DNA of 64,000 bases from Candidatus Kaiserbacteria bacterium (GTDB taxonomy: Bacteria; Patescibacteriota; Minisyncoccia; Phycocordibacterales; UBA2100): assembly GCA_021413775.1 (NCBI GenBank), contig JAIOPS010000021.1:5014-69013 (forward strand), read 5' to 3'. Numbering within the stretch: position 1 is the first letter of the stretch; each line of letters opens with the position of its first letter. The position numbers and the translations under genes were made by a program. Shown here piece after piece: positions 21,947 through 40,777 of this stretch. The notes under the pieces were generated by a model. It saw only the letters and a program-made list of their open reading frames with translations, had not been told where the DNA came from and ran no database searches.

Positions 21947-22993
21947 ATGCCGCAAACCGGCATTCAAAAAGTTGATTATCCCGTCATCGTTATCGGCTCC
22001 GGCCCGGCCGGCATGAACGCCGCCAATGCTCTCGCCTTCGAGGGCATCAGCGTGCTCGTCGTTGACGGCAGCGCACCGGGCGGACAGGCAAACACGAGTC
22101 ACAGCATCGAAAACATCCTCGGCTTTCCGAAAGGAATTTCGGGTCCGGAACTGACGACGCTGTTGATTCAAACAGGCCTCCGGGACGGTGTGCAATACCT
22201 GATGCCGTTCCGCGCCAACCGCGTCCGCTACGACGAGGCTTCGTGCATCTTCACCATCGTCGGCGAAGACGGCGAGTCACTTACCTGCCGGGCCATCATC
22301 ATCGCGACCGGTGTCCAACTCCGCTTGCTCAAGGCGATTAACGCGGCGATATTCTACCGTCGCGGTCTCGAGTACGGTTCGCCCGAACAGCATCGCGAAT
22401 TGTGGACCCGGATGAGCGTGGGTGTCATGGGCGGCGGTAACGCCGCAGCGCAGGCGGCGATGTTTCTCTCGAGTTGCGAGGGCACGAAGGTGCACCTGTG
22501 CGTTCGCGGCGAGTCGCTCAAGGACAGCATGTCGGCGCGCGTCATCAAGCACCTGAACGACGCCGCCAATGTGGACGTGCTGCTCAGGACCGAAGTGCTC
22601 GAAACACTCGGCGATGAAAATCTCAACTTCACCGGCGTCCGCGTGAAGGGACCCGAGGGTGAGCGCGTCATCAACATGCAGAGCCTCCATGTGCATATCG
22701 GCGCGAAACCGCACACTGACTGGCTCAGCGGCTGCGTCGAACTCGACCCGAAAGGCTACGTGCTCGCGGATTCGTTTCTGCCTGCAAGCTCGTGGCCGCT
22801 CAAAAGCCGTCCGCCGTTCGAACGCGAAACTTCGCACCCCGGCATTTTCGTCGCCGGCGATGCGCGATTCGGTCACGACGTGCATCGCGTGCAGACGGCG
22901 TCCAGCGACGGCGTCATCGCGGGAGCGAGTGCCTACAAGTATCTCGAGCAGGCCTGCATCACGCCGCAGCTGCTGGAGAAAAAGACCGCCTGA
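21947..22993 (+). CDS. FAD-dependent pyridine nucleotide-disulfide oxidoreductase (thioredoxin-reductase-like, apparently lacking the CxxC active site)
   Basis: 348 aa; GSGPAG FAD motif and second GGGNAA NAD(P) motif; TrxR-like length but no redox-active CxxC seen. Confidence 0.6.
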   Translation: MPQTGIQKVDYPVIVIGSGPAGMNAANALAFEGISVLVVDGSAPGGQANTSHSIENILGFPKGISGPELTTLLIQTGLRDGVQYLMPFRANRVRYDEASCIFTIVGEDGESLTCRAIIIATGVQLRLLKAINAAIFYRRGLEYGSPEQHRELWTRMSVGVMGGGNAAAQAAMFLSSCEGTKVHLCVRGESLKDSMSARVIKHLNDAANVDVLLRTEVLETLGDENLNFTGVRVKGPEGERVINMQSLHVHIGAKPHTDWLSGCVELDPKGYVLADSFLPASSWPLKSRPPFERETSHPGIFVAGDARFGHDVHRVQTASSDGVIAGASAYKYLEQACITPQLLEKKTA

Positions 22994-23061
22994 GCACATG
23001 CCAGGCATGAACGACATGCTCCCCGGGGATTCCGGGGAGTATTTTTTTACGAACTGCCGAA

Positions 23062-24891
23062 CTACTCAGGACGCGTCCAGAAGTTATTCCAGACGAACCA
23101 GCCCCCGAGAAGAAGCAGGAGAAACACGAGGAATATCCACAGGTAGTTTCCTCCGGGGAGACCCGATGCACCGCCCGCAACTTGAGATTCCGGAGCGGTC
23201 ACAATGCGCGAATCGGAGGATTCCGGCACAACATCACCTTGGGCAACTACCGGTACTGAATTCTCCGCGGACTCCACCACGGCAGTTGTTCGCAGCGGCG
23301 ACGGTGTAGAAACCGCAGAAGCGCTCCGTATCGGCTGCGAGATAACGGTCGGCGCAATGGGTGTTCCGTTCGCTGTGCCCGGCGCATTTTCTGGTGACGC
23401 ACCTGTTCCGAAAGACGGGGCTGCGGGGGACGTACCGCCGGATGTCGGAGAGGGAGTGGGCGCGACGGGAGGACCGTTCGAACCGCCCGACGGGAGCGGA
23501 GCCGGTGCGGGAATTGAAATATCATATGCGAATGCGGCGTCGAGCGAAGGAATCGCTCCGTAGCACGCAACGGCGTGAATAGTCGCAGACGCCGATAATG
23601 CAATCGGAGAACTGTAGAGAGCGCCGGTCGCGCATGTCGGCGTGGAACCGTCCGTCGTATAGCGGATTTCTGTCGCACCCGTTTGCGTAAGAGTCACACT
23701 CTGTGCACCCGTATAACTTCCCGTTACGGGCGATGCGGAGACTGTATCCCCTGTCACCGTGACGATGAACGTGGACGTCGCGGAGTTCAAAGCCGCATCA
23801 GTAGCCGTACAAGTCACCGTTGTTGTGCCCACAGGAAATGTCGAGCCTGACGAGGGCGTGCAAGAGACCGAGACGCTCACATCAACATCATCAGTCGCAG
23901 TCGGGTCCGTAAAGCTCACAACCGCTCCGGAAGAGCTCGTTGAAGTCGCAAATATGTCCGTACCGGTCACAATAGAAGGCGCCGTAGTATCCGTGACGAT
24001 AACGTCGAAGGTGGACGTCGCCCAATTAAACGCGACATCATGTGCCGTACACGTAACGGTCGTCGTACCCAGAGCAAAGAGCGAGCCCGACGCGGGCACG
24101 CACGAAGTACTTACCGCACCGTCCGTCGCATCATTTGCAGTTGCACTGAAAGTCAGCACCGTGCCGGATGCACTTGCTGCGGCGGCCGTCGTGGTTGCGG
24201 GAGTCGTTATGACCGGAGGCGTCACGTCGCCTCCTCCGCACGCATCAATGCAAAAACTCGTATCGTTAGATACGCCGACGTTGTGCACGGAATCCATCGG
24301 AATGATGTGCAGTGTATGACTTCCGTTTGCGAGCACAATTGGCGATACGTACGACCACGAACTGCAGTCCTCAACTGCACCCGAGTCTATTTGGCATGTC
24401 GCCGAGTCAAAATCGTTGTCCGGAGATTCGAAGTCGAACGATGGCGTACTGCTCGCCGCAGGGTATACGTAACCACCGGGAATTACATCGATGGTGCCGC
24501 CGAAATACACAAAACTGATTGTAGGCAAAACAGTATCTTTGGATGCGGGGAAATCCGTACGCGAAGAACCGTTTGTCTGAGAGACATCCACAAGCAAGGC
24601 GCCCTCGTCGAGCGAGGTCGCATCTACTGTCGTGGACCATGCGCCTCCGGTACAAATTGGTGCAACGGCGGGAGAAACAGTATGTAAACTCGAATCACGA
24701 ATAACCAGCGTCACGGGTCCTCCCTCAAGATTACACGCGCCGCTTGCGGGAGCAGCGGAGACGGTCGCCGCCGTTATTTGGGGGACGAATACGTTGACGA
24801 GGCCGTCACCACCAGCAAAGACAGTACCGGCCGACAAAAGAAAACCAAGGCCTGCGACAGCCGCTACACCGCCTCGAAGCGGAATATTCAT
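23062..24891 (-). CDS. cell-surface protein with two HYR-like Cys-containing repeats, Fn3/CHB_HEX_C-like module and C-terminal TM anchor
   Basis: ORF 23062..24948; start at MNIPLRGG (24891) gives a signal peptide. Repeats VSTSCVPASGSLFALGTTTVTCTAHD and VSCTPSSGSTFPVGTTTVTCTATD (HYR signature). Pro/Ser/Thr-rich stalk; C-terminal hydrophobic anchor LWIFLVFLLLLLGGWFVW. Confidence 0.6.
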   Translation of the reverse strand: MNIPLRGGVAAVAGLGFLLSAGTVFAGGDGLVNVFVPQITAATVSAAPASGACNLEGGPVTLVIRDSSLHTVSPAVAPICTGGAWSTTVDATSLDEGALLVDVSQTNGSSRTDFPASKDTVLPTISFVYFGGTIDVIPGGYVYPAASSTPSFDFESPDNDFDSATCQIDSGAVEDCSSWSYVSPIVLANGSHTLHIIPMDSVHNVGVSNDTSFCIDACGGGDVTPPVITTPATTTAAAASASGTVLTFSATANDATDGAVSTSCVPASGSLFALGTTTVTCTAHDVAFNWATSTFDVIVTDTTAPSIVTGTDIFATSTSSSGAVVSFTDPTATDDVDVSVSVSCTPSSGSTFPVGTTTVTCTATDAALNSATSTFIVTVTGDTVSASPVTGSYTGAQSVTLTQTGATEIRYTTDGSTPTCATGALYSSPIALSASATIHAVACYGAIPSLDAAFAYDISIPAPAPLPSGGSNGPPVAPTPSPTSGGTSPAAPSFGTGASPENAPGTANGTPIAPTVISQPIRSASAVSTPSPLRTTAVVESAENSVPVVAQGDVVPESSDSRIVTAPESQVAGGASGLPGGNYLWIFLVFLLLLLGGWFVWNNFWTRPE

Positions 24892-24922
24892 ATTTCTATT
24901 ATACAACGAGGCACTTTTTTGT

Positions 24923-26671
24923 CTAGCCGAACGTGAATGTGTACGCATTGAGACCCGGACTCAATATTTCTATATCTATTGTGTGCTCGCCGTAGTCCGC
25001 CCCCTCGATGAGTTTGTAGAGTCTGTCACTGCCGACCGTCGCTTTCCCCTCAGCATCTACATCTGCCCCCGCCGAGCTTCCCGGCAATGCGCCGTCGATT
25101 GTCACCTTGAGAGACACCGGGGAATCGGCGCTGCCGACGAAGTACACGCTCTTCGCACTGTAACGGAAGCGGATGCGCGCACCTGCTGTCGTATTGACCG
25201 CATACTCAGGATTGAATTGCCACGTGCCGCTCAGATAGAGCTGGTTCGGCCGAATAACGGTCGGCATGACGAGCGTTTGTGCCCCCAACGTGCCGATTTT
25301 CCCGTTTGCGAGGTATTCGTTGCGTGACGCTCCGAAATAGGTTTCCGGCGAGCCGACACTGCCTGCGGAAGGAGTGCTCGTATCTATCGCGATATCCGAC
25401 GGCATCTCCGGCGCAGCCTCGCCGAGCCGGGCGGCGCGCTCAGCGAGCGCTTTCTGTATCGCTTTTTCCGTTTCATCATAGTTCCCTTCTCCGATGTGGT
25501 CGTACACGATGTATCCGTCTATATCGATGAGGTATTTGCGGGGCCAGTACTGGTTGCCGAGTGCGTTCCAGGTCCTGTACTCGTTGTCGAGAACTACCGG
25601 GTATTTGATGCCGAAACCCTTTACCGCCTGCTCCACATTTTTCTGCACCTTTTCGAATGAAAACTCGGGCGTATGGATACCGATTATTTCCAAACCTTCG
25701 CTTTCGTACCGGTCGTACCACATTTTGAGGTACGGCAATGTACGCTGACAGTTGATGCATGAGTATGTCCAGATATCGAGGAGCACGACTTTCTTACCTT
25801 TAAACTCAGCGATGGTCACCGGCTTTCCTTCCGTATTGATGTACCCGTCGGGCGCGACGAGCTCGGGAGCCTTTTGAAATATTTTTGATTTCTCAGAGTC
25901 TGAGAGCTGCGCGGTCGATGTCGCAGATGCGCCTGACGCATTGTTGTCTTTACCCGCACCGAGCAAGTGCTGTTCAATGCGCGTAGCATCAAATCCGTTT
26001 GCGAGCATCCAGGCTTCAAGCTTCGCCATGGTCCCCGTGAGGACAGCGAGCCCGACGAGGAGGAACAGTACGCCGATAGATTTTCTGAACCAGCCGGACG
26101 GATCTATCGCGATTCCGAGCTTGTCCACAAGCCTCTGTCCCAGGAGTGCGATAAGAAGCAAAAAGCCCGAGAGCCCGATGCAGTATGCGATAAGGTCGAG
26201 CGTGCCGACGAGGTAACTGGCGGGAAGCACTGTCGCGAGAATGACGAAGTATGTCGGCGAGCAGCTCGAGAACACGGGACCCAAGGCCGCTCCCATGAGC
26301 ACGTCGCCCCAGAATGACTGCTTGCGATACCCTTCCCCCAGCGCGCGATTCGACGCGAGATTCATTTTGTTGACGATACCGAGTCCGTCCCAGAGCCACG
26401 GGAAAAGCATCGCGACTCCGAAAAGAACGAGTATGCCTCCGGAGACCAGCTCCCAAAACCCTTGCGGGACGTCGATGAATGCCGTGGTGACCTTCAGAAG
26501 GAACGTAAAGAGAAAGACCGAGAGGCCGAGCGATACGGAAATCACGTACGCTTTCCGCCAGTTCCTCTCCCCCGCAACGGAGCCTCCGACGACAACCGGC
26601 AAGAGCGGAAGTACGCACGGCGCAAGCACCGTGAGCACTCCCGCTACAAATGAAATGAGAAAAAGTATCAT
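24923..26671 (-). CDS. DipZ-like thiol:disulfide interchange protein (CcdA/DsbD membrane domain + thioredoxin-like CxxC domain + C-terminal beta-sandwich-like domain)
   Basis: 582 aa; N-terminal multi-TM CcdA-like region with conserved Cys (LAPCVLPLLP, SSCSPTY); TlpA/ResA-like WTYSCINCQ motif; extra ~170-aa C-terminal domain as in mycobacterial DipZ. Confidence 0.7.
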   Translation of the reverse strand: MILFLISFVAGVLTVLAPCVLPLLPVVVGGSVAGERNWRKAYVISVSLGLSVFLFTFLLKVTTAFIDVPQGFWELVSGGILVLFGVAMLFPWLWDGLGIVNKMNLASNRALGEGYRKQSFWGDVLMGAALGPVFSSCSPTYFVILATVLPASYLVGTLDLIAYCIGLSGFLLLIALLGQRLVDKLGIAIDPSGWFRKSIGVLFLLVGLAVLTGTMAKLEAWMLANGFDATRIEQHLLGAGKDNNASGASATSTAQLSDSEKSKIFQKAPELVAPDGYINTEGKPVTIAEFKGKKVVLLDIWTYSCINCQRTLPYLKMWYDRYESEGLEIIGIHTPEFSFEKVQKNVEQAVKGFGIKYPVVLDNEYRTWNALGNQYWPRKYLIDIDGYIVYDHIGEGNYDETEKAIQKALAERAARLGEAAPEMPSDIAIDTSTPSAGSVGSPETYFGASRNEYLANGKIGTLGAQTLVMPTVIRPNQLYLSGTWQFNPEYAVNTTAGARIRFRYSAKSVYFVGSADSPVSLKVTIDGALPGSSAGADVDAEGKATVGSDRLYKLIEGADYGEHTIDIEILSPGLNAYTFTFG

Positions 26672-26676
26672 CGAAG

Positions 26677-26952
26677 TTAGCGCGTCATCACATCGGCTTT
26701 CACCGTCGTCGATGCGCCCATCATCACGTCCGCGCCCTTTTCATCCGTCATCATGCCGTCCGTCGAGGTCGACATGCTCTCGTCTTTCATCATCGCATCC
26801 GATGAAGTCGCCATCGAACCTGTCGTCGACGCCGTCATTGCGTCATCTGAAACTATCATGGAATCCGACGAGTTTTTATTGATAAGAAGATATCCCCCGC
26901 CGAAAATTACGACGAGAGCTACGATTGTTCCGATAATTGCGTTTGTAGACAT
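26677..26952 (-). CDS. small membrane-anchored Met-rich peptide (putative Cu(I)/metal-binding)
   Basis: 91 aa; single N-terminal TM, then repeated D-x-M-(M) motifs (DAMM, DGMM, DVMM, ESM...); stop 5 nt before the DipZ-like gene start, same strand. Confidence 0.4.
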   Translation of the reverse strand: MSTNAIIGTIVALVVIFGGGYLLINKNSSDSMIVSDDAMTASTTGSMATSSDAMMKDESMSTSTDGMMTDEKGADVMMGASTTVKADVMTR

Positions 26953-27039
26953 ATGTCCGGATATATTTCACTTCTAATACGTGAAGTATAGGGGCGCTCA
27001 CTGTCGTGTCAAGGCGACTTTACATTCGCTGTGCACAAC

Positions 27040-27405
27040 TCAGCGGTAGAGAGTGCTCCAGATTCGCGCGACCACCTTCCCCACGACCATAGCGATAAGC
27101 GCGACGACCAGCCACGGGTCGATACGATGCATGCTGTTCTGAACGATAATACCGAGAATGAGGACCGCGCTTCCCGCGAGGAATGCGGCACGCCCCGCCG
27201 CCGAGCGATGCACCGCATCCCGCTCGTCTTTCGCGCTTTCCCGCAATATAAAGACGATGAAAGCACCGAACGCGACTGCGGAGAGCGCGAGCATCGTCAT
27301 GTGCGCCATGCTCGGCATCCACAAACCCATCGGGTTCAGAAGAAACACCGCGAGTACGCAGAAAATCAGAGCGCTCACAATCTCGGGCATCATATCTTTT
27401 GTCAT
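27040..27405 (-). CDS. DUF2178-like small membrane protein (partner of XRE regulator)
   Basis: 121 aa, 3-4 predicted TM segments; start overlaps XRE gene stop by 4 nt (ATGA). Confidence 0.5.
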   Translation of the reverse strand: MTKDMMPEIVSALIFCVLAVFLLNPMGLWMPSMAHMTMLALSAVAFGAFIVFILRESAKDERDAVHRSAAGRAAFLAGSAVLILGIIVQNSMHRIDPWLVVALIAMVVGKVVARIWSTLYR

Positions 27406-27608
27406 AGGCTGAAAATATCGTCTACATTCTTTTTAAAATAACGCGCAAGCTTGAGAGCAAGGAGAACTGACGGCGTATAATTCCCCTTCTCTATCGCGAT
27501 GACGGTTTGCCTGCTTACCCCGACCCTCTCCGCAAGCTCCTCCTGCGTCACTCCCGCTTTTTCGCGCAGTGCTTGCACCGTGTTCTTCACTTCTTCGCGC
27601 ATGGACAT
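27402..27608 (-). CDS. XRE-family (Cro/C1-type HTH) transcriptional regulator
   Basis: 68 aa; GVTQEELAERVGVSRQTVIAIEKG is a classic HTH_3/HTH_26 signature (YozG-like). Confidence 0.7.
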   Translation of the reverse strand: MSMREEVKNTVQALREKAGVTQEELAERVGVSRQTVIAIEKGNYTPSVLLALKLARYFKKNVDDIFSL

Positions 27609-27645
27609 GAATCATAGTGTGCACAGACGAAGCGTCAAGGATGCT

Positions 27646-28368
27646 TTACACCGACGGATGATTCTTCTTGAAAAACTCCGCGCGGATTTTCATAACATCC
27701 CTATGGAAGCCGTCATTCTCGCGACGCGGATACGGCAATTGAATCGGGAATTCGGCCTCGATTTTTCCGGCTTTCATCAGAATCACGCGCTCGCCCATCG
27801 AAACCGCCTCTTCGATGACGTGCGAGACAAGCACTATTGTTTTCTTCGTCCGCTTCCAGGCGGCAATTACGTCATCGTGAAGCTCGGCTGTCGTCTCCGG
27901 GTCCAGCGCAGAAAACGGTTCGTCGAGAAGGAGCACCTGCGGGTCAACGGCGAGCGCGCGTGCGATGCCGACGCGCTGTCGCTGACCTCCGGAGAGTTCT
28001 CCGGGATATTTGTGAGAGAGCTCGCGGATGCGCATCGCATCCAGTTCCGCGTTCACGGTCCTTTCCAGCTGCGTCCCGGATTTTCCCGCGGTGCGTAGAC
28101 CGAGGGCGACATTTTCGAATACTGAAAGCCATGGGAAGAGCGCTCCGAATTGAAACGAAACTGACACTTTCTTCGGCCGGTCGACAGTCCCCGTATCGGG
28201 CGATTCCAGACCGGCGATGAGTTTCAACATGGTCGATTTGCCGCAGCCGGACGGACCGATGAGACACGCCATTTCTCCGTCGCGTACCGCGAATGAGACA
28301 TTATCAACAGCCGGCGAGGTTTCCCGTTCGTACGTTTTCGAAACATTTCTGAAAAGTATGAGATTCAT
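27646..28368 (-). CDS. ABC transporter ATP-binding protein (NitT/TauT family)
   Basis: 240 aa; Walker A GPSGCGKST, signature LSGGQRQRVGIARAL, Walker B LLLDEPFSALD. Confidence 0.85.
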   Translation of the reverse strand: MNLILFRNVSKTYERETSPAVDNVSFAVRDGEMACLIGPSGCGKSTMLKLIAGLESPDTGTVDRPKKVSVSFQFGALFPWLSVFENVALGLRTAGKSGTQLERTVNAELDAMRIRELSHKYPGELSGGQRQRVGIARALAVDPQVLLLDEPFSALDPETTAELHDDVIAAWKRTKKTIVLVSHVIEEAVSMGERVILMKAGKIEAEFPIQLPYPRRENDGFHRDVMKIRAEFFKKNHPSV

Positions 28369-28369
28369 A

Positions 28370-29209
28370 TCAGTCGAAGCGGAAGCGTTGCGAATATGTG
28401 ATGAGTCGTTGCCACACGAAGAGATTCAGGACGGCAATCATGAGAACCATGATGACGAGCGCCTCCGCAAAAACCGTGTTGTGTGCGTTGGCCGCCGCGG
28501 AAACGAGAATACTCCCGATACCGAAGAGGTCCTGCGACGGATTGCCGTGCGGAATGTAGGTATGAAGCGCTTCGGCGATGATAATGAGGTTCCAGCCCTG
28601 TGCGACCGCGAGTACCGACCCTATGACAAGTTGCGGAAATACGGCGGGAATGAGCACGCGTCGCACGTATGCAAACCCGCTCAGACCGAAAATGCGGGCC
28701 GCGTTCACGATATCCTGCGGGATTATTTTCAAACCGCCAACAAGCGTAAATACAATATTCCACAGCATGCTCAAGAAAAGAATGGAGACGGCCGCGCCCT
28801 CCATGAAATCCCACCGCACGAACATCACAACGACGACGGGGAAGAATGCGAGAATCGGCACCGATTCCAAAACATCGAATACCGGCAAGAGGATTTTCTC
28901 AAGGAGCCGGTTGTGCGTCGCAAGTATCGCGAGCGGAATTCCTACAACGACGGCGAGAATATACGCGACCGTAATGCGTGCGAGTGTCGCAAACGAGGCC
29001 TCAACAAGAACGTGCCAGGTCGCGACGCCCGACTCCGCGACTTCCGTCTGAAAGAGAGAGACGACAAGATAAATCGCCGCAGCGACGAGAAGGGGCCCGA
29101 TGAGCAATGAGTAGAGCCGTTCGCGTACAGAAACCGGATACGTGAGAAACATGTGATGGGCGCGATGTCGCGGATGCTTCATGATTCCATTGTAACGCGG
29201 CGTAGACAT
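28370..29209 (-). CDS. ABC transporter permease (NitT/TauT family, BPD_transp_1)
   Basis: 279 aa (true start probably one of the internal Met at 29182 or 29152); 6 TM; EAA-like loop; 2 nt before the ATPase gene. Confidence 0.8.
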   Translation of the reverse strand: MSTPRYNGIMKHPRHRAHHMFLTYPVSVRERLYSLLIGPLLVAAAIYLVVSLFQTEVAESGVATWHVLVEASFATLARITVAYILAVVVGIPLAILATHNRLLEKILLPVFDVLESVPILAFFPVVVVMFVRWDFMEGAAVSILFLSMLWNIVFTLVGGLKIIPQDIVNAARIFGLSGFAYVRRVLIPAVFPQLVIGSVLAVAQGWNLIIIAEALHTYIPHGNPSQDLFGIGSILVSAAANAHNTVFAEALVIMVLMIAVLNLFVWQRLITYSQRFRFD

Positions 29210-29328
29210 TCTCCCGGCACGATGCTACAACTCCCGAAGCTTCGTGCCGTTCAGGGAGAACGCCGACTATGATTATGCTCTTCAGCCGTCTTCCGCACTG
29301 CTCACTGCGCGCAAAAATCGGCCTGGCG

Positions 29329-29781
29329 ATGACGCAGGTCGCTCGCTCACCCGAAGCGGGCAGCGAGTTCGATACACTGACTCAGCACCTCCGGCATCTG
29401 CCTGATGACGAATTGCTTTCGATGCTCACCGGCATCGGCTACGACTGCGTAATCGCGCTCGAACACGGTCGCATCATCGGGTACCTCGCCCACCAGCGCC
29501 GCGAACGCGAAACGCACTGCTTCTCACTCTGTTCGATGCAGGGGTTCGGCGGCCGGGGTCTCGCGACCCGCATGACCGAGTTCTGGCTCAGGTGCGCCAA
29601 GTACCGGAATGTCGAGCGTGCCCGCCTGTGGGCCGGCGACCGCCTGGGCAATCTTCGCGATGCGGAACAGATGCGCCGCATCTACCGGCGCATGGTGGAG
29701 AACCGCGGGAACCTTTCGTTCCCCGTCGTCGAACACGCGTGCGGTGAACCCGGATGGATTCACCTGGCACACGCCGCATAA
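29329..29781 (+). CDS. hypothetical protein, possible GNAT-fold acetyltransferase
   Basis: ORF 29269..29781; start MTQVARS at 29329. Weak GNAT motif-A-like QGFGGRGLATRM; low confidence. Confidence 0.3.
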   Translation: MTQVARSPEAGSEFDTLTQHLRHLPDDELLSMLTGIGYDCVIALEHGRIIGYLAHQRRERETHCFSLCSMQGFGGRGLATRMTEFWLRCAKYRNVERARLWAGDRLGNLRDAEQMRRIYRRMVENRGNLSFPVVEHACGEPGWIHLAHAA

Positions 29782-29875
29782 ACGAGACTCCTTTAAAAAC
29801 AGAAGGGCCGCCCGCTTGGCGGCCCTTTCGATGTATCTGCGCACGTACGCAGACTTTCGCTGATATAATTCTCCG

Positions 29876-31525
29876 ATGACATTGCGCGAACGACTTGCAC
29901 ACGTCGTCAAAGGTGACTGTGCGGATGACACCGCGAGTCTGCAAAAGTACAGCCGCGACACAAGTATTTTTTCGCGCACTCCCGCGGTCGTCGTATTTCC
30001 GAAAGACGCCGATGATGTTGCGGCGGTCGTACGCTTCGCGCGCGCGGCGAAACAGCGCGACGAAAACGTTTCCGTCGCCGCGCGCTCCGCAGGAACTGAT
30101 ATGACGGGCGGTCCGCTGACTGATTCCATATCACTCGTGTTCACACGCTATATGAACGCCATTATCGGCGTAACAGGCGAGACGGTGACTGCGCAGCCGG
30201 GCGTGTATTACCGCGACCTCGAGAAGGAAACTCTTAAAAAAGCCGGAAAAATTATCCCCTCCTACCCTGCATCACGCGAACTCTGCGCATTCGGAGGCAT
30301 GGTATCCAATAATTCCGGCGGCGAACTCACCCTCAGATACGGGAAAACAAATAAATATGTCCGCTCAATGAACGTCGTGCTTTCGGACGGTTCGCGCGCG
30401 ATACTCAAACGGCTGTCGCCTGCTGAACTCGCTGCAAAAAAGTCACTGCAAGATCTGGAGGGCTCCATATACCGCGACCTTCACGCCCTTCTTGACTCTC
30501 ATGCGGATGAAATAGAAGCGGCACGACCGAACGTTACGAAGAATTCCGCCGGATATCCGCTTTGGAATATTATCGACCGTGCAACGGGAACATTCGACCT
30601 CACGCAGCTGATCGTAGCTGCACAGGGTACTCTGGCAATCACTACCGAGGCAACTGTCGGGCTTGAGAAACTGAAGTCTCACCGCGCGATGCTCGTCGTG
30701 TTCCTTTCCGATGTATCCATTCTTCCCGACATCGTGCAGCGGGTGATGAAATTCGACCCTGAATCGTTTGAATCCTACGACGACCAGACCTTCAAACTTG
30801 CGGTGCGCTTTGCTCCGCAAATCATCCGACACTTCGGCATCATCAGAATGATAAAGCTCGGCTTCGCATTTATTCCCGAAACATATCTGGTTTTCACGGG
30901 CGGCGTACCGAAACTCGTTCTCATGGCCGAGTTTGCGGAAGACAGCGCGGAAGAAGCCATGGAGAAAGCGACACAGGCCCGCGCGGCGCTTACCGGATTA
31001 CACGTCAAAACGAAGATTGCCCGCTCGGAAACTCAATCCGCGAAGTACTGGACGATACGCCGGGAAAGCTTCGCTCTCCTCAGAAAAAATCTGAAGGGCC
31101 TCTATGCCGCGCCGTTCATTGACGACCTCGTGGTACATCCGGCGGATTATCCGAAATTTCTTCCCGAGCTCGATGCGCTTCTCGCCGGCCACAAATTCAT
31201 TTATACGATTGCGGGACACATCGGAGACGGAAACTTCCACATTATCCCGCTTGAAAACATGGGAGACCCGTCCGCGCGCGAAGAGATACTCGATTTAATG
31301 CCGAAAGTCTACAGGCTTGTCGCAAAATATAAAGGCTCTATTACGGGCGAGCACAACGACGGTATTATCCGCACGCCGTATCTCCCGATTATGTACGGAG
31401 AGAACATATGTGCGCTGTTCGCGGAGGTGAAGAAAATCTTCGACCCGCTCAATATATTGAACCCCGGCAAAAAAACCGGCGGCACCGTTGATGACATCAG
31501 AGCCAGCATGATTACGCATGTCTAA
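29876..31525 (+). CDS. FAD-linked oxidase (PCMH-type FAD-binding domain; GlcD/D-lactate dehydrogenase family)
   Basis: 549 aa; N-terminal FAD_binding_4-like region (VVVFPKDADDVAAVVRFA, FGGMVSNNSGG); C-terminal FAD-oxidase_C-like region. Confidence 0.8.
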   Translation: MTLRERLAHVVKGDCADDTASLQKYSRDTSIFSRTPAVVVFPKDADDVAAVVRFARAAKQRDENVSVAARSAGTDMTGGPLTDSISLVFTRYMNAIIGVTGETVTAQPGVYYRDLEKETLKKAGKIIPSYPASRELCAFGGMVSNNSGGELTLRYGKTNKYVRSMNVVLSDGSRAILKRLSPAELAAKKSLQDLEGSIYRDLHALLDSHADEIEAARPNVTKNSAGYPLWNIIDRATGTFDLTQLIVAAQGTLAITTEATVGLEKLKSHRAMLVVFLSDVSILPDIVQRVMKFDPESFESYDDQTFKLAVRFAPQIIRHFGIIRMIKLGFAFIPETYLVFTGGVPKLVLMAEFAEDSAEEAMEKATQARAALTGLHVKTKIARSETQSAKYWTIRRESFALLRKNLKGLYAAPFIDDLVVHPADYPKFLPELDALLAGHKFIYTIAGHIGDGNFHIIPLENMGDPSAREEILDLMPKVYRLVAKYKGSITGEHNDGIIRTPYLPIMYGENICALFAEVKKIFDPLNILNPGKKTGGTVDDIRASMITHV

Positions 31526-32555
31526 TCTACGAACATACCTTCTCGCTGCAGCCGCCTTCCTTGCTCCCGGCGTCGCTTTCGCGCACGAAGTATACGTGCT
31601 CTCCCCTGAAACCGTGAGGGCGGCTCTCGCTGCGGACTCACCGAATCCGTTCACCGCGTACATCGGCAACGAGTATCACTTTTTTTTCTGGGGCCTTATT
31701 TCGTTCATCACTATGTCGACAATTCTTGCCGCATCAGCTTTCCATCTGCTTGAGCGGCGTATCGGACCTTTTCTCGCTCGACTGAAACGTTTTGCGCACC
31801 CTGTCGCACGGGTTACGGTCGGAATATGTCTCATCGGTTTCGGGACTTCCGCCGATTTGTTCGGCACCGAACTTCCTTTTGGCGACATTTTCGGACCGCT
31901 TACATCAGTCATGCAGTACATATTCGTGATGGCGGGTGCCGCAGTTGTGCTCGGTTTTTACACGCGTTACATCGCTCTGATACTCATTGCGATATACGGA
32001 TACGCAGTCTGCCTGTTCGGCTCATACATGTTTACCTATACCGACCATCTCGGTGCATACTTTTTTCTTTTTGCACTCGGCAGCGGTACCTGGTCAATCG
32101 ATCACCGAGCACGCTCAGGGAACCTTCCGCGTCTTTTTAATTCGTTCGCCCGAAGCATACAACCGTATGCGTTCGTCATACTACGGCTCGGCTTCGGCTT
32201 CGGCGTGATGTTTGCTGCGGTGTACGCGAAGTTCATTCACAGCGAACTTGCTCTGCAGACTGTGCTCCAGCATAACCTCACCGACTTTTTCCCTTTCGAG
32301 CCTCTGTTTATCGTACTAGGAGCACTCATCATCGAATTCCTCGCCGGACTGATGATATTCACCGGTATTGCGATTCGCTGGACAGGACTGTTCCTTATCT
32401 TCTGGCTGACGCTCTCGCAGATATATTTCGGGGAGCTCTGGTGGGTTCATGCCGTTCTTTTCGGTATCGGTTTTGCAATCTTCTGTCACGGCTATGACCG
32501 GTTCTCGGTTGAAGGACACGTACTTAAGCGCGGCAGGCGCGAACCGGTTTTGTAG
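31518..32555 (+). CDS. integral membrane protein (DoxX-like, possibly duplicated)
   Basis: 345 aa; signal-like N-terminus then ~8 hydrophobic segments; no catalytic motif recognised. Confidence 0.35.
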   Translation: MSNLRTYLLAAAAFLAPGVAFAHEVYVLSPETVRAALAADSPNPFTAYIGNEYHFFFWGLISFITMSTILAASAFHLLERRIGPFLARLKRFAHPVARVTVGICLIGFGTSADLFGTELPFGDIFGPLTSVMQYIFVMAGAAVVLGFYTRYIALILIAIYGYAVCLFGSYMFTYTDHLGAYFFLFALGSGTWSIDHRARSGNLPRLFNSFARSIQPYAFVILRLGFGFGVMFAAVYAKFIHSELALQTVLQHNLTDFFPFEPLFIVLGALIIEFLAGLMIFTGIAIRWTGLFLIFWLTLSQIYFGELWWVHAVLFGIGFAIFCHGYDRFSVEGHVLKRGRREPVL

Positions 32556-32591
32556 GTTTTCATTGTCTCCGAATGCGGGTACAATCGCAGC

Positions 32592-33083
32592 ATGCCCGAT
32601 ACACAGCAGCATGACATCGACCGCGCCTTTCTCTTACAGGTAGTTCAGCCGGCACTCGTCGGGCTGATTGACGGTTCCGTGTCGACGCTTGCACCCTTGT
32701 TCGCTGCGGCGTTCGCGAGCGGAAACCCCCATGTCGCCTTCCTCGTAGGAACAGCAGCAGCTATCGGCGCAGGTATTTCAATGGCTTTTGCGGAGGCGCT
32801 CTCGGACACCGGAGAACACACGGGACGGGGGCACCCGTTCGTTCGCGGCTCTATCGTCGGATGCGCAACTTTCTTCGGCGGTATCTTCCATACGCTGCCC
32901 TTTCTTCTTTCGTCCCTCAGCGCAGCGCTCTACTTTGCGTACATCATTGTGGCCATTGAACTGCTCGCCATCGGCTACATACGGTTCCGCTACTTCAAGC
33001 TCGGTTTCTGGTGGTCCGTAGCGCAGGTCATTTTCGGCGGCGCACTTGTGCTCGCAGCCGGCATCCTCATCGGCGCCGCCTAG
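32592..33083 (+). CDS. VIT1/CCC1-like (DUF125) membrane protein
   Basis: 163 aa; DGSVSTLAPLFAAAFA motif reminiscent of the VIT family; C-terminal TM pair. Confidence 0.45.
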   Translation: MPDTQQHDIDRAFLLQVVQPALVGLIDGSVSTLAPLFAAAFASGNPHVAFLVGTAAAIGAGISMAFAEALSDTGEHTGRGHPFVRGSIVGCATFFGGIFHTLPFLLSSLSAALYFAYIIVAIELLAIGYIRFRYFKLGFWWSVAQVIFGGALVLAAGILIGAA

Positions 33084-36976: not shown

Positions 36977-37055
36977 AAGCGACGAACACGGTAAGACTAT
37001 CTCATATCCGCATTTTCTCCGAGCGCTCTCCGCGGTTCACATGCGCCCCGAAGCG

Positions 37056-38395: not shown

Positions 38396-40777
38396 TCACT
38401 TCCCCGCGCTTTCGTCGCGCGAAAAGAAAGTGCGGACGATAAGGAGCTGTACGAACGCGCACACTGCGGCAACGCCGCCTGCGAGACACACTGCCGCGGC
38501 TGACGGCGCGTACGTCGTATACAGAGACATGAGGAGCGGCACGTGGAAGAACACAAAGAGGAGCGCCGCAATGACGGCTCCGAGTCCGACCAATTGCCAT
38601 CGTTGCGCCCGGAACGAAATCTCCGTATAGACCTGCGGCGCAAGCAGGAAAAATCCGTATCCGAGAAATATGAAGGTAAGCACAAGAGTCGACCTCACCA
38701 TATCTTCTCCCACGAGAGAGGCACCGTAGAGGGCAACGAACACCGCGCCTGCCGCCTGCACCGGAGAGAGGGCGAGCGGTAACGGAAGAACTCTCTTGAG
38801 AAACGGTCGGGTGCTGACCGGTTTCGTATGTGCGGTCGGACGTATTGCCCAATATGAAATGAGCATGTACGGAATACCTATCGCAAAGAATGTGATGAGA
38901 GAAACGTTGAGCGGATTCAGCGGGAACGGATACCCGAGCGCGCTCAAAACAACAAACAGCATGAAGCCGAGAAATGTCTGGTTGAGAAAGATTCCGGTGT
39001 AGATTTCAATATTCTCAATCATGCTGTCCGCAAGTCTCACGCCGGCCGGCAATTCAATCAGACTGTTGCGCATAAGTACGACCGCCGCAACCTGCCGTGT
39101 CGCGGGCGCACCGTCGAACATGGCAATGCCGAGGTCGGCTTTTTTAACTGAGAGTGCATCATTGGCGCCGTCTCCGACCATCGCAGTGAATCCGCGCTCC
39201 TTGAGCACATCGATGATGCGTTCCTTTTGGTGCGGTTGAATCCGCGCAAAGATGCGGTATGCGTCGACAGATTCCCGGAACACCTCTTCGCTCCACGTAT
39301 CAATTTCCTGCCCGGTGACGACTGTGTCCGAACCCGCTATCCCGGCCCCTCTCGCTACCGCCTGTACAGTATCGGGATTATCTCCCGAGAGAACCCGTAT
39401 GCAGACCCCCCGGGACTGAAAGAAATCAACCGCATCGCGGATTCCTTCTCTCAGCTCCTGCCGCAGCACGAACACCGCGACTACCGAGAGCTTCGTTTGC
39501 GCGGAAAGTGCCGGAGGGACGACATTCCCGGGGCATTGCATCACAGTGAGTGTACGTTTGCCGCAACGTGCGTGCGTCTCGACGGTCTGTTGAAGCCACG
39601 CACGGTCAGCCTCAGTTGCACAGTGCGGGAGAAACGCCTCAGAAGAGCCCACGAGCACTGTTTCTCCGGTACCCAAGGTGTCGGATAAAGAGACGCCACC
39701 GAACCGTCTCCATGACGAAAAAGAGAGTGCGTCCTGTACGGTTTCATTTCCCGATACCTCGAGAAATTTGCGGACGGCGAGAATTGTTTCCGACGAATCG
39801 TTCGAACCGTTGATATACGCCGACGTCAGCCGCTTTGCCGTCGCTTCCGCTACCCCCTTCGGAAGCGACATTTCCTCAACCGTCGGCACATTCTCGGTGA
39901 GCGTCCCGGTTTTATCCATGCACAAATTCTTGATGCGACCGAATTTTTCGGTCGCGTTGACCTCCTGCAGCAAAACGTCCCGTCGAAGGAAATGTACCGC
40001 CCCGAACGTGAAGAGAAGTGTCGTCGACACAATGAGGCCCTGCGGCACAAGGATGCTCGCCAGCGCACCGATGGTCTCGACGACGGTGAGAGCATCGTCG
40101 TGCAGAATGTATCCTCGTGCAACTACAAACGCGATAGACGCAACGAGCACATACAGGGTGTATGTGATGACGGTGTTGATAGAGAGCTGAATGGGACTCG
40201 GATTCGCCGTATATCGCGTGAGACCGCGTGTCATATGTGCCATCGCACTTCCGTTGAATGAAGTGCCGGCACGCACGGTTCCGCGTCCGGCGGTTACAAT
40301 ACTGCCGCCCGCGACTTTCTCACCGACAGCCTTTGCAATTGAGCCGGATTCGCCGGTAAGAAGACTCTCGCTGATTTCCATGCTGTCCGATGCGGTGACA
40401 GTGCTGTCGCACGGCACTTGGTCTCCGAGTTTAAGACGCACCGCATCTCCTTCCTGAACTTTTTCAAAGAAAACCTCTTCTTCGCTGCCGTCAGCGCGAA
40501 TCCTCGTTGCCCGAAGCGCTGTCAGCTGCTGCAAGCGCTCGAGCGTAGCCCACGCACGAACGTCCTGCGCGATACCCAATACCATGTTCACAAACACAAT
40601 TGCGCCGAGAAATACGCCCTCCTGCGCACTACCGAAAAAGACAAGAAGTCCGACGACTAAGAAAATAATCGCGTTTATCGGCAGAAAAATGTGCCGTGCC
40701 GCAATAGAGGCGATGTCTGCGATTTGCCTGCGGCGGTCATTCATTCCACGTATGCTACCAGGCCAGAGACGGGACAC
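38396..40777 (-). CDS. P-type cation-transporting ATPase (type II/III-like)
   Basis: 793 aa; TGES actuator motif, DKTGTLT phosphorylation site, GDGANDA hinge, ~8 TM; no CPC/HMA heavy-metal motifs. Confidence 0.8.
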   Translation of the reverse strand: MSRLWPGSIRGMNDRRRQIADIASIAARHIFLPINAIIFLVVGLLVFFGSAQEGVFLGAIVFVNMVLGIAQDVRAWATLERLQQLTALRATRIRADGSEEEVFFEKVQEGDAVRLKLGDQVPCDSTVTASDSMEISESLLTGESGSIAKAVGEKVAGGSIVTAGRGTVRAGTSFNGSAMAHMTRGLTRYTANPSPIQLSINTVITYTLYVLVASIAFVVARGYILHDDALTVVETIGALASILVPQGLIVSTTLLFTFGAVHFLRRDVLLQEVNATEKFGRIKNLCMDKTGTLTENVPTVEEMSLPKGVAEATAKRLTSAYINGSNDSSETILAVRKFLEVSGNETVQDALSFSSWRRFGGVSLSDTLGTGETVLVGSSEAFLPHCATEADRAWLQQTVETHARCGKRTLTVMQCPGNVVPPALSAQTKLSVVAVFVLRQELREGIRDAVDFFQSRGVCIRVLSGDNPDTVQAVARGAGIAGSDTVVTGQEIDTWSEEVFRESVDAYRIFARIQPHQKERIIDVLKERGFTAMVGDGANDALSVKKADLGIAMFDGAPATRQVAAVVLMRNSLIELPAGVRLADSMIENIEIYTGIFLNQTFLGFMLFVVLSALGYPFPLNPLNVSLITFFAIGIPYMLISYWAIRPTAHTKPVSTRPFLKRVLPLPLALSPVQAAGAVFVALYGASLVGEDMVRSTLVLTFIFLGYGFFLLAPQVYTEISFRAQRWQLVGLGAVIAALLFVFFHVPLLMSLYTTYAPSAAAVCLAGGVAAVCAFVQLLIVRTFFSRDESAGK

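Follow-up and report, generated by a model that had tools for sequence, protein, structure and literature searches.

The window analysed here, a 64-kb (64,000-nt) stretch of a Candidatus Kaiserbacteria contig, encodes on its minus strand a 91-aa methionine-rich (Met-rich) membrane peptide, a 582-aa DipZ protein and a 609-aa surface protein with HYR repeats, the last counted from its second ATG. An initial annotation had read these three genes as one redox and metal module resembling the Salmonella Scs system, and the three open reading frames (ORFs) are all present as it described, with gaps of 5 nt between the peptide and DipZ genes and 31 nt between the DipZ and HYR genes (Table 1). Comparison with 84 DipZ loci, one genome per species, and with nine further peptide/DipZ loci (L085-L093; 93 loci in total) shows that the unit containing the peptide and DipZ extends upstream, not downstream to the HYR gene. 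The unit is a four-gene cassette, encoding an Xre-family helix-turn-helix (HTH) protein, a 121-aa membrane protein, a Met-rich anchored protein and DipZ, and it recurs across Patescibacteria (Candidate Phyla Radiation, CPR). The Xre HTH and 121-aa genes, both upstream of the peptide, are the conserved partners that the initial annotation missed.

Table 1. Genes and predicted elements around the DipZ cassette, in window positions
Feature	Position	Strand	Evidence and remarks
Xre-family HTH protein, 68 aa, putative repressor	27402-27608	-	HTH_3, E = 9e-17; 89% identical to the L085 orthologue
121-aa multi-pass membrane protein	27040-27405	-	homologues in 30/84 loci, always between the HTH and Met-rich genes
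Operator copy O1, GTGTAAAGCATCCTTGACGC	27632-27651	-	pattern search, 2 mismatches; overlaps -35 box of the HTH-gene promoter
Predicted sigma-70-like promoter of the HTH gene, TTGACG-16-TATGAT	27611-27638	-	consensus scan, 10/12
Operator copy O2, ATGTAAAGTCGCCTTGACAC	27006-27025	-	exact pattern match; palindromic half-site pair overlapping the peptide-DipZ -35 box
Predicted sigma-70-like promoter of peptide-DipZ, TTGACA-16-TATACT	26985-27012	-	consensus scan, 11/12
91-aa protein: membrane anchor (~5-24), acidic Ser/Thr/Asp/Met tail with D-x-M(M) repeats	26677-26952	-	thioredoxin-less DipZ-partner member
DipZ, 582 aa: CcdA-like membrane domain, TlpA-like redoxin, Thioredoxin_10	24923-26671	-	Pfam; NCBIfam ResA/TlpA-like; PDB 2hyx/5cyy
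Predicted promoter-like site, TAGACA-16-TATAAT	24898-24925	-	11/12; spans DipZ stop codon, 6 nt before HYR ATG
Surface protein, 609 aa: two HYR, CHB_HEX_C_1/Fn3_assoc, Big_13-like, Pro/Ser/Thr stalk, C-terminal anchor	23062-24891	-	Pfam
GC-rich hairpin, likely terminator	23016-23042		12-bp stem and T run on the + strand; RNA fold z = -4.1

The DipZ cassette and its proteins

Homologues of the HTH and 121-aa genes were found in 30 of the 84 DipZ loci, on the same strand and in the fixed order HTH, membrane protein, Met-rich gene, DipZ. Loci with a short peptide like that of the window follow the same order, with a 120-121-aa membrane protein, in L085, L087 and L089-L093; L086 and L088 are short contigs in which only the peptide gene, directly followed by DipZ, is visible. 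Every short-peptide gene whose context could be retrieved lies directly upstream of a DipZ gene. L087 is 99.9% identical to the window at the nucleotide level and comes from the same organism, and identity between the window and L085 is 89% for the Xre HTH protein, 67% for DipZ, 59.5% for the 121-aa membrane protein and 53.5% for the Met-rich peptide. The window has both the cassette order and an operator before the third gene, a layout shared by 30-40 loci; its third gene carries no WCxxC thioredoxin domain and belongs to a thioredoxin-less sub-family. Of the gene order proposed in the initial annotation, the adjacency of peptide and DipZ is kept in every orthologous peptide locus found, whereas the HYR gene accompanies them in none of the 93 loci. 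A first impression from L001-L004 and L023, that the Met peptide is not conserved, was overturned by the wider sample of 84 loci.

Domain searches agree with the earlier description of the second gene as a CcdA-thioredoxin fusion with an extra C-terminal domain, the architecture of DipZ. Pfam places a DsbD_TM domain at residues 4-210 (29.1 bits, barely above the cut-off of 27.1), a Redoxin domain at 274-405 (E = 1e-14, with AhpC-TSA and Thioredoxin_8 also matching) and a Thioredoxin_10 domain (PF17991) at 441-582, which spans the full 142-position model (E = 4.6e-36). The NCBIfam ResA subfamily model matches at E = 7e-20, residues 261-527 match two solved structures of DipZ, 2hyx and 5cyy (E = 2e-54), and the Etrx structures 4hqz and 2yp6 match the redoxin domain. 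Cys19 (in APC), Cys137 (in SSCSP) and the CxxC pair C305-INC-C308 do not vary across 17 aligned homologues. The protein has all three parts of a DipZ, namely a membrane domain with two cysteines, a CxxC redoxin domain and Thioredoxin_10. Six hydrophobic segments were read by eye, and there is no N-terminal soluble domain, the protein beginning in its first membrane helix. DipZ has more than 7,300 homologues, many of them annotated as CPR, and the names they carry (Kaiserbacteria, Paceibacterota, Parcubacteria) agree with a Patescibacteria/CPR origin of the window. In some loci two genes, one CcdA-like and one Redoxin-Thioredoxin_10, take the place of the fused DipZ. The electron source of the DsbD family is cytoplasmic thioredoxin. 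Its members pass electrons across the membrane via cysteine pairs to extracytosolic thioredoxin-like proteins (PMC8238504).

Methionine makes up 12 of the 91 residues of the peptide (13% overall and 17% of the tail). Its best 40-aa stretch holds nine, and it alone among the 70 ORFs of the window has more than five Met in any such stretch. The tail is acidic and Ser/Thr-rich, not Lys-rich, with Met residues mostly spaced by 5-9 positions and with MM doublets. Pfam, NCBIfam and PADLOC searches left the peptide without a family, and no NCBIfam model for MXKDX-repeat proteins matched, even at E values up to 10. A word-indexed search yielded one homologue (P0121, 88 aa), an exhaustive HMMER search yielded eight 50%-identity clusters of homologues of 80-98 aa, and a metagenome scan with a four-sequence peptide alignment gave no match. 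The run of D-x-M(M) motifs noted in the initial annotation is borne out by this family, in which the unit (S/T)(S/T)D-x-M-M occupies conserved columns. The conserved tail positions are, in window numbering, Met32, Met39, Met47, Met67 and Met89, together with Asp37, Asp52 and Asp65, and most members also carry the C-terminal motif AST-x-V-(D/K)-A-x-x-M-(T/A)-(H/R). The L085 orthologue has diverged furthest among the four cassette proteins yet retains the anchor and 15 Met, suggesting selection on composition and motif over exact sequence.

In about 24 of the 84 loci, a same-strand gene ending no more than 20 nt from the DipZ start codes for a protein in which a membrane anchor and a Met-rich linker precede a WCxxC thioredoxin domain (PF00085, Thioredoxin). 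The third cassette gene is of this longer type in most relatives. The window peptide aligns with the anchor and linker of these partner thioredoxins and ends about where the thioredoxin domain would start. By sequence comparison, it is best described as a stable thioredoxin-less form of the Met-rich-linker thioredoxin, with an 80-98-aa family of its own. ORFs with at least six Met in 40 aa make up 26 of 145 in the 1.5 kb upstream of DipZ vs. 11 of 894 elsewhere (odds ratio 17.5, p = 1.7e-15).

An alignment confined to the anchor and linker of longer proteins, ending near the start of their thioredoxin domain, would also be expected of an inert remnant, in which the 91-aa ORF is what a deletion of the thioredoxin domain left behind, or of Met-rich segments that are mere flexible spacers. 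Fast divergence of the linker relative to DipZ (53% vs. 67% identity with L085) fits such an origin. We nevertheless judge it improbable: at least nine distinct proteins of 80-98 aa share their length class, Met/Asp columns, C-terminal motif, promoter and position, and Met-rich segments recur across several phyla with three C-terminal states (thioredoxin, fasciclin or none). In the fasciclin versions (L029 4337-4903 and L037 2569-3762), an anchor, a Met-rich segment and a fasciclin domain (PF02469) are encoded directly upstream of DipZ, and the Met-rich segment therefore travels with different C-terminal domains. Two of the Met-rich thioredoxin partners (L011 4079-4999 and L042 4070-4987) contain an insert of ~110 aa with the sequences "PAHIH-x-G-x-CP" and "(S/A)CGD", a metal- or redox-site-like motif; the insert has no Pfam match.

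Putative regulators, predicted promoters and a predicted operator

The HTH gene overlaps the 121-aa gene by 4 nt at its 3' end. The 121-aa family is marked by the motifs NP(F/M)xxWMPxM (NPFxFWMPxM in the family) and DER(D/E), of which MP and DER are invariant in the alignment, and the protein matches no family in Pfam, NCBIfam or PADLOC searches. Since its gene is always paired with the Xre gene, often overlapping it, we regard the 121-aa protein as a candidate membrane sensor or anti-repressor of the Xre protein. A reading of the locus as a phage-defence system was set aside; PADLOC gave only generic HTH matches.

Predicted promoters precede the HTH gene and the peptide-DipZ pair. The -35 and -10 boxes of the latter are conserved in six orthologous intergenic regions, with the consensus ATGTAAAG-N4-CTT(G/T)ACA(T/C) followed by a 16-17-nt spacer and CTATACT. 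The two halves of the predicted operator are inverted repeats, and its right half contains the -35 box, giving the classic arrangement of a dimeric HTH repressor. An equivalent of O2 lies at the same place in L085 and L088-L091. The peptide and DipZ genes are thus predicted to share a promoter and an operator; together with the 5-nt gap and the adjacency conserved in all orthologous peptide loci, this upholds the functional link between them that the initial annotation had proposed. No clear Shine-Dalgarno sequence was seen ahead of the peptide and DipZ start codons. The predicted -10 boxes of the HTH and HYR genes end 2 nt and 6 nt before the ATG, respectively, which suggests leaderless or near-leaderless mRNAs for these two genes.

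The operator, TGTAAAG-N4-CTT(T/G)ACA, occurs with at most one mismatch in 40 loci, nearly always in the gap that separates the Met-rich gene from the membrane-protein gene, and in many cases with a second copy before the HTH gene (L011, L018, L022, L038, L046, L047, L051, L062, L078 and L090). By our own estimate, fewer than one site would be expected by chance in 0.9 Mb. In the 64-kb window, close copies are found only before the HTH and peptide genes, with one weak three-mismatch site at 37055; the pattern search found no copy before the HYR gene. Where the Met-rich gene is missing (L008 and L069), the operator stands directly before DipZ. It also lies directly before msrA, a methionine sulfoxide reductase (Msr) gene, in L025 (3871-3888), and beside a divergent operon of msrA and membrane-anchored msrB in L045 (1592-1609). 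These copies would extend the predicted Xre regulon to methionine sulfoxide reductases.

The HYR gene and other neighbours

The third gene of the initial annotation encodes a surface protein whose match to HYR (PF02494) covers two stretches and scores 78 bits against a cut-off of 21.7 (E = 6.9e-22), so that all three Pfam families to be expected from that annotation (DsbD, Redoxin and HYR) were recovered. CHB_HEX_C_1/Fn3_assoc matches at residues 388-443, and the Big_13 match is weak. Direct reading of the sequence shows an N-terminus that resembles a signal peptide, a stretch of Pro, Ser and Thr at ~455-550 and, towards the C-terminus, a hydrophobic segment (~583-603). The two HYR repeats, the stalk and the anchor are as first described, whereas "Cys-rich" overstates a content of 12 Cys in 609 residues, or six pairs, from which we infer about one pair per domain. 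The longest form of the ORF, from 24948 (628 aa), would overlap the DipZ gene by 26 nt. A 100%-identical 609-aa product is annotated by NCBI (P0122) as [quoted passage not shown]. The HYR search returned 2,111 matches at E ≤ 1e-5, and the named ones in the top 120 of these are all bacterial, mostly from Actinomycetota, which speaks against the earlier remark that HYR repeats are uncommon in bacteria.

The initial annotation had made this protein a member of the module, and in its fullest form the proposal is a Scs-like three-gene operon in which DipZ delivers reductant specifically to a disulfide-containing HYR adhesin. The genes are co-oriented with a 31-nt gap, the HYR protein is apparently exported and contains six pairs of Cys, and a terminator scan found no terminator-like site between the DipZ and HYR genes, so that read-through into the HYR gene is possible. 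Against this, a tblastn search with the HYR protein found no match in the 84 DipZ loci or in the nine further ones, and no full-length orthologue was found: apart from its own 100% one, the listed matches reach no further than the HYR repeats (21-42% of the query). Immediately before the HYR gene there is a strong promoter-like site but no copy of the cassette operator, and relatives carry Msr genes, glycosidases and unrelated genes downstream of DipZ. Outside the conserved cassette and with a promoter-like site to itself, the HYR gene counts as a lineage-specific neighbour, and the adhesin should not be read as a DipZ client. Its composition (GC z 0.7; GC content at third codon positions, GC3, z -1.5) is not decisive on horizontal transfer.

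The parallel with Salmonella ScsABCD on which the proposal drew extends to a small membrane protein gene placed before a DsbD-family reductase gene, in an envelope-stress regulon, which in Salmonella is under CpxR/A. ScsB has the DsbD-like alpha-beta-gamma organization, with an N-terminal periplasmic alpha domain, an 8-transmembrane beta domain and a gamma thioredoxin domain. The window DipZ differs from it in its start within the membrane, its six hydrophobic segments by eye, its TlpA-like domain and its Thioredoxin_10 tail. ScsA is a CX2C (CLAC) protein with a TAQRMAGLHAL signature and a peroxidase-like signature, and its function is unknown; it is needed for H2O2 tolerance and not for Cu tolerance, and the Scs review mentions no Met-rich region in it (PMC10907172). 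The 91-aa peptide has no cysteine, no CX2C and no TAQRMAGLHAL signature. The Scs parallel therefore falls away for both proteins, and we consider the three-gene operon very improbable.

The hairpin listed in Table 1 sits between the convergent HYR gene and a gene for a thioredoxin reductase (TrxR)-like flavoprotein (21947-22993, + strand). This flavoprotein scores 160 bits against a TrxB cut-off of 343, lacks the CxxC that is CATC in TrxB, and has an unusually high GC content (GC 0.616, GC3 0.768, z > 2). Without a CxxC, and with none of the 84 DipZ loci encoding a homologue, it was rejected as the electron source of DipZ. On the other side of the cassette, positions 27646-33083 encode an ABC transporter (ATPase and permease), a 549-aa FAD_binding_4/FAD-oxidase_C protein, a 345-aa DoxX-like protein and a VIT1 protein. 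This block is syntenic with DipZ in the related Kaiserbacteria contigs L001-L005, L023 and L091; in L091, as in the window, the ABC transporter lies upstream of the cassette. Inside this block, the presence or absence of the HTH, 121-aa and peptide genes looks like a polymorphism caused by either insertion or loss. A 170-aa weakly GNAT-like ORF (29269-29781, + strand), placed between the ABC transporter and FAD_binding_4 genes, has the highest GC content (0.63, z 2.5) of the 12 genes listed around the locus and may be a foreign insertion.

A possible role in methionine repair, and comparison with known systems

MsrA or MsrB genes, confirmed by Pfam as PMSR and SelR, are present in 17 of the 84 DipZ loci. 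Clustering of the ORFs from 31 cassette loci ranks the four core genes first, followed by the accessories MsrB (9), MsrA (7), glutaredoxin (4) and TspO (3); clusters for MsrA, MsrB, glutaredoxin, TspO and DM13 were annotated, and the rest were judged by eye. MsrB carries an N-terminal membrane anchor in L012, where it directly follows DipZ, and in L018 and L045, and outside CPR a signal-bearing MsrA or MsrB adjoins DipZ in L064 and L067. The link between the cassette and methionine sulfoxide repair is drawn from this genome context.

The same clusters bear on the database name. NCBI and JGI call these proteins "cytochrome c biogenesis protein DipZ", and a role in cytochrome c maturation would have a precedent in system II, where CcdA/DipZ reduce apocytochrome c through ResA/CcsX (PMC3781833). 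No recurrent cluster in the 31 loci resembles ResB/ResC or CcsA/CcsB, most clusters being judged by eye. The CPR group is generally considered fermentative and cytochrome-poor. We find cytochrome c maturation hardly credible as the role of the cassette, and the label is probably misleading for these genomes.

On balance, and with modest confidence, we favour the cassette as an inducible envelope module against methionine and thiol oxidative stress. DipZ would accept electrons from a cytoplasmic thiol donor, as is established for the family, and by analogy with that family would hand them on, via the membrane cysteines Cys19 and Cys137, to the outward-facing C305-x-x-C308 of its TlpA-like domain. 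The peptide tail, placed outside the cell beside DipZ, would act as an oxidant-reactive methionine buffer, as do the Met-rich peptides MrpX and BcrX, which are hypochlorite sinks encoded with methionine sulfoxide reductase (PMC4436054, PMC8315932). In relatives, the fused thioredoxin and the membrane-anchored MsrB could recycle the oxidised methionines with electrons from DipZ. The Xre protein would repress both promoters, with the stress signal perhaps relayed by the 121-aa membrane protein, whose WMPxM motif is conserved, and the defence against envelope methionine and thiol oxidation would be inducible.

A more specific form of this proposal is tentative, and we think it rather doubtful as it stands. 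Patescibacteria would have a thiol-driven counterpart of the MrpX-MsrPQ defence against hypochlorite and reactive oxygen species, in which a tethered Met sponge, free or fused to thioredoxin, is oxidised sacrificially at the surface and regenerated by DipZ, thioredoxin and anchored MsrB, the regulon being governed by a hitherto undescribed Xre repressor, its small membrane-sensor partner and the TGTAAAG-N4-CTTTACA operator. The thioredoxin-less peptide of the window would then be the minimal sponge. Without a respiratory chain, Patescibacteria would have no means of driving the quinone-fed MsrPQ.

Several observations weigh against the methionine/thiol module. Most Msr genes near DipZ have no export signals and look cytoplasmic. 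A motif search of the 64-kb window found no Msr, and no partner thioredoxin domain was found elsewhere in it, so recycling of the oxidised tail is unaccounted for in this genome fragment. The nearest DipZ relatives (L001-L004 and L023, 66-72% identity) are without the first three cassette genes: no Met peptide is encoded there, and DipZ is immediately preceded by an ABC transporter or by other genes; DipZ must therefore work without the other three genes. The promoters and the operator are predictions. The position of the peptide tail outside the cell is taken from partner homologues (L024, L025, L045 and L070) whose N-termini resemble signal peptides or lipoprotein signals, the positive-inside rule being uninformative here. 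Finally, the Ser/Thr/Asp/Met composition of the tail, with His in relatives (P0242, with MMHD), would equally suit metal binding.

This last point leads to the copper reading, already raised in the initial annotation, in which the exposed Met (and Asp/His) residues of the tail would serve as a Cu(I) sponge or chaperone at the membrane surface, and DipZ would hold the thiols of the envelope in the reduced state when copper is in excess, as in copper tolerance dependent on Scs or DsbD. Cu(I) binding by Met-rich segments is known from Ctr1, CopA/PcoA, CueO and CusF. In the peptide family, D-x-M-M repeats lie in conserved Met and Asp columns, and His accompanies Met in several members (P0242 and P0121). 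In L070, from Solirubrobacterales (Actinomycetota), a 107-aa lipoprotein with Met/His-rich MKHEG-like repeats is encoded directly upstream of DipZ (1410-1733) and is the best hint of a metal-binding version of the partner. The Scs system also ties DsbD-like reductases to copper (PMC10907172). We hold the copper reading to be unlikely all the same. The Met spacing described above is not of the MxM/MxxM type, no CopA/CopZ/CsoR/CopC/Sco-type cluster recurs in the 31 cassette loci, and the genes that do recur beside the cassette or follow its operator are MsrA and MsrB. The window itself encodes no P1B-type copper ATPase. Of its two P-type ATPases, the 793-aa one (38396-40777, - strand) has DKTGT and no CPC/CPH/SPC metal motif, and the other (55340-57988, + strand) has the Cation_ATPase_N and Cation_ATPase_C domains of the P2 type; neither looks like a copper exporter.

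The methionine/thiol module is of wider interest for CPR/Patescibacteria, whose genomes are tiny yet account for many of the DipZ homologues, and in which non-respiratory protection of the exposed envelope is poorly understood. It comes with a defined predicted regulon, in which a cis element and two regulators would control an anchored Met-rich protein, DipZ and, in relatives, MsrA/B, and it draws attention to 80-98-aa Met-rich proteins that are currently annotated as "hypothetical". Each of the ingredients has precedents, be it DipZ, surface Msr pathways driven by thiols or Met-rich sinks for oxidants. We found no paper in which DipZ goes together with "methionine-rich", or Msr and thioredoxin with Patescibacteria, and none on the combination of Xre and small membrane protein regulators, a palindromic operator, an anchored Met-rich protein with or without thioredoxin, and DipZ.

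Among known systems, mycobacterial DipZ (Rv2874; 2hyx, 5cyy) has the same three-part architecture of CcdA-like domain, TlpA-like CxxC domain and Thioredoxin_10 as the window protein. The fasciclin proteins encoded before DipZ in L029 and L037, both CPR, echo the adjacency of dipZ and mpb70 in M. bovis (PMC7993774). The window DipZ differs in lying behind a promoter predicted to be Xre-controlled and in having a Met-rich anchored partner, and its Kaiserbacteria host makes a role in cytochrome c maturation unlikely.

A functional parallel may be drawn with the surface methionine-repair pathway CcdA-Etrx-MsrAB2 of S. pneumoniae, in which the gene for a membrane thiol transporter lies together with those for a thioredoxin-fold protein and an Msr, both of them exported (PMC3914529); related MsrAB pathways exist in S. 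gordonii and F. nucleatum. All three parts are present in the CPR loci L012, L018 and L045, and it is the DipZ redoxin domain that the Etrx structures match. In the cassette, however, the transporter is fused to its own redoxin and the partner thioredoxin has a Met-rich linker, and the window has neither a partner thioredoxin nor an Msr gene.

The cassette may resemble MrpX and BcrX with MsrPQ/YedYZ in placing a small, putatively exported protein rich in Met and charged residues beside a redox-repair system and a putative stress-responsive regulator. In MrpX, Met accounts for 20% and charged residues for 44% of the protein; hypochlorite oxidises it, and a methionine sulfoxide reductase of the periplasm has been proposed to restore it (PMC4436054). 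By motif and composition, the D-x-M spacing implied by the MXKDX repeats of MrpX and BcrX equals the D-x-M(M) unit of the window peptide. MrpX is soluble, Lys-rich, recycled by a quinone-fed molybdoenzyme and controlled by an extracytoplasmic function (ECF) sigma/anti-sigma pair, whereas the window peptide is membrane-anchored, Ser/Thr/Asp-rich, paired with a thiol-based transporter and under putative Xre control. The Msr proteins of the related cassettes are likewise thiol-dependent MsrA/B and not MsrP. The cassette would form a bridge between surface Msr pathways driven by thiols and sacrificial peptides rich in Met.

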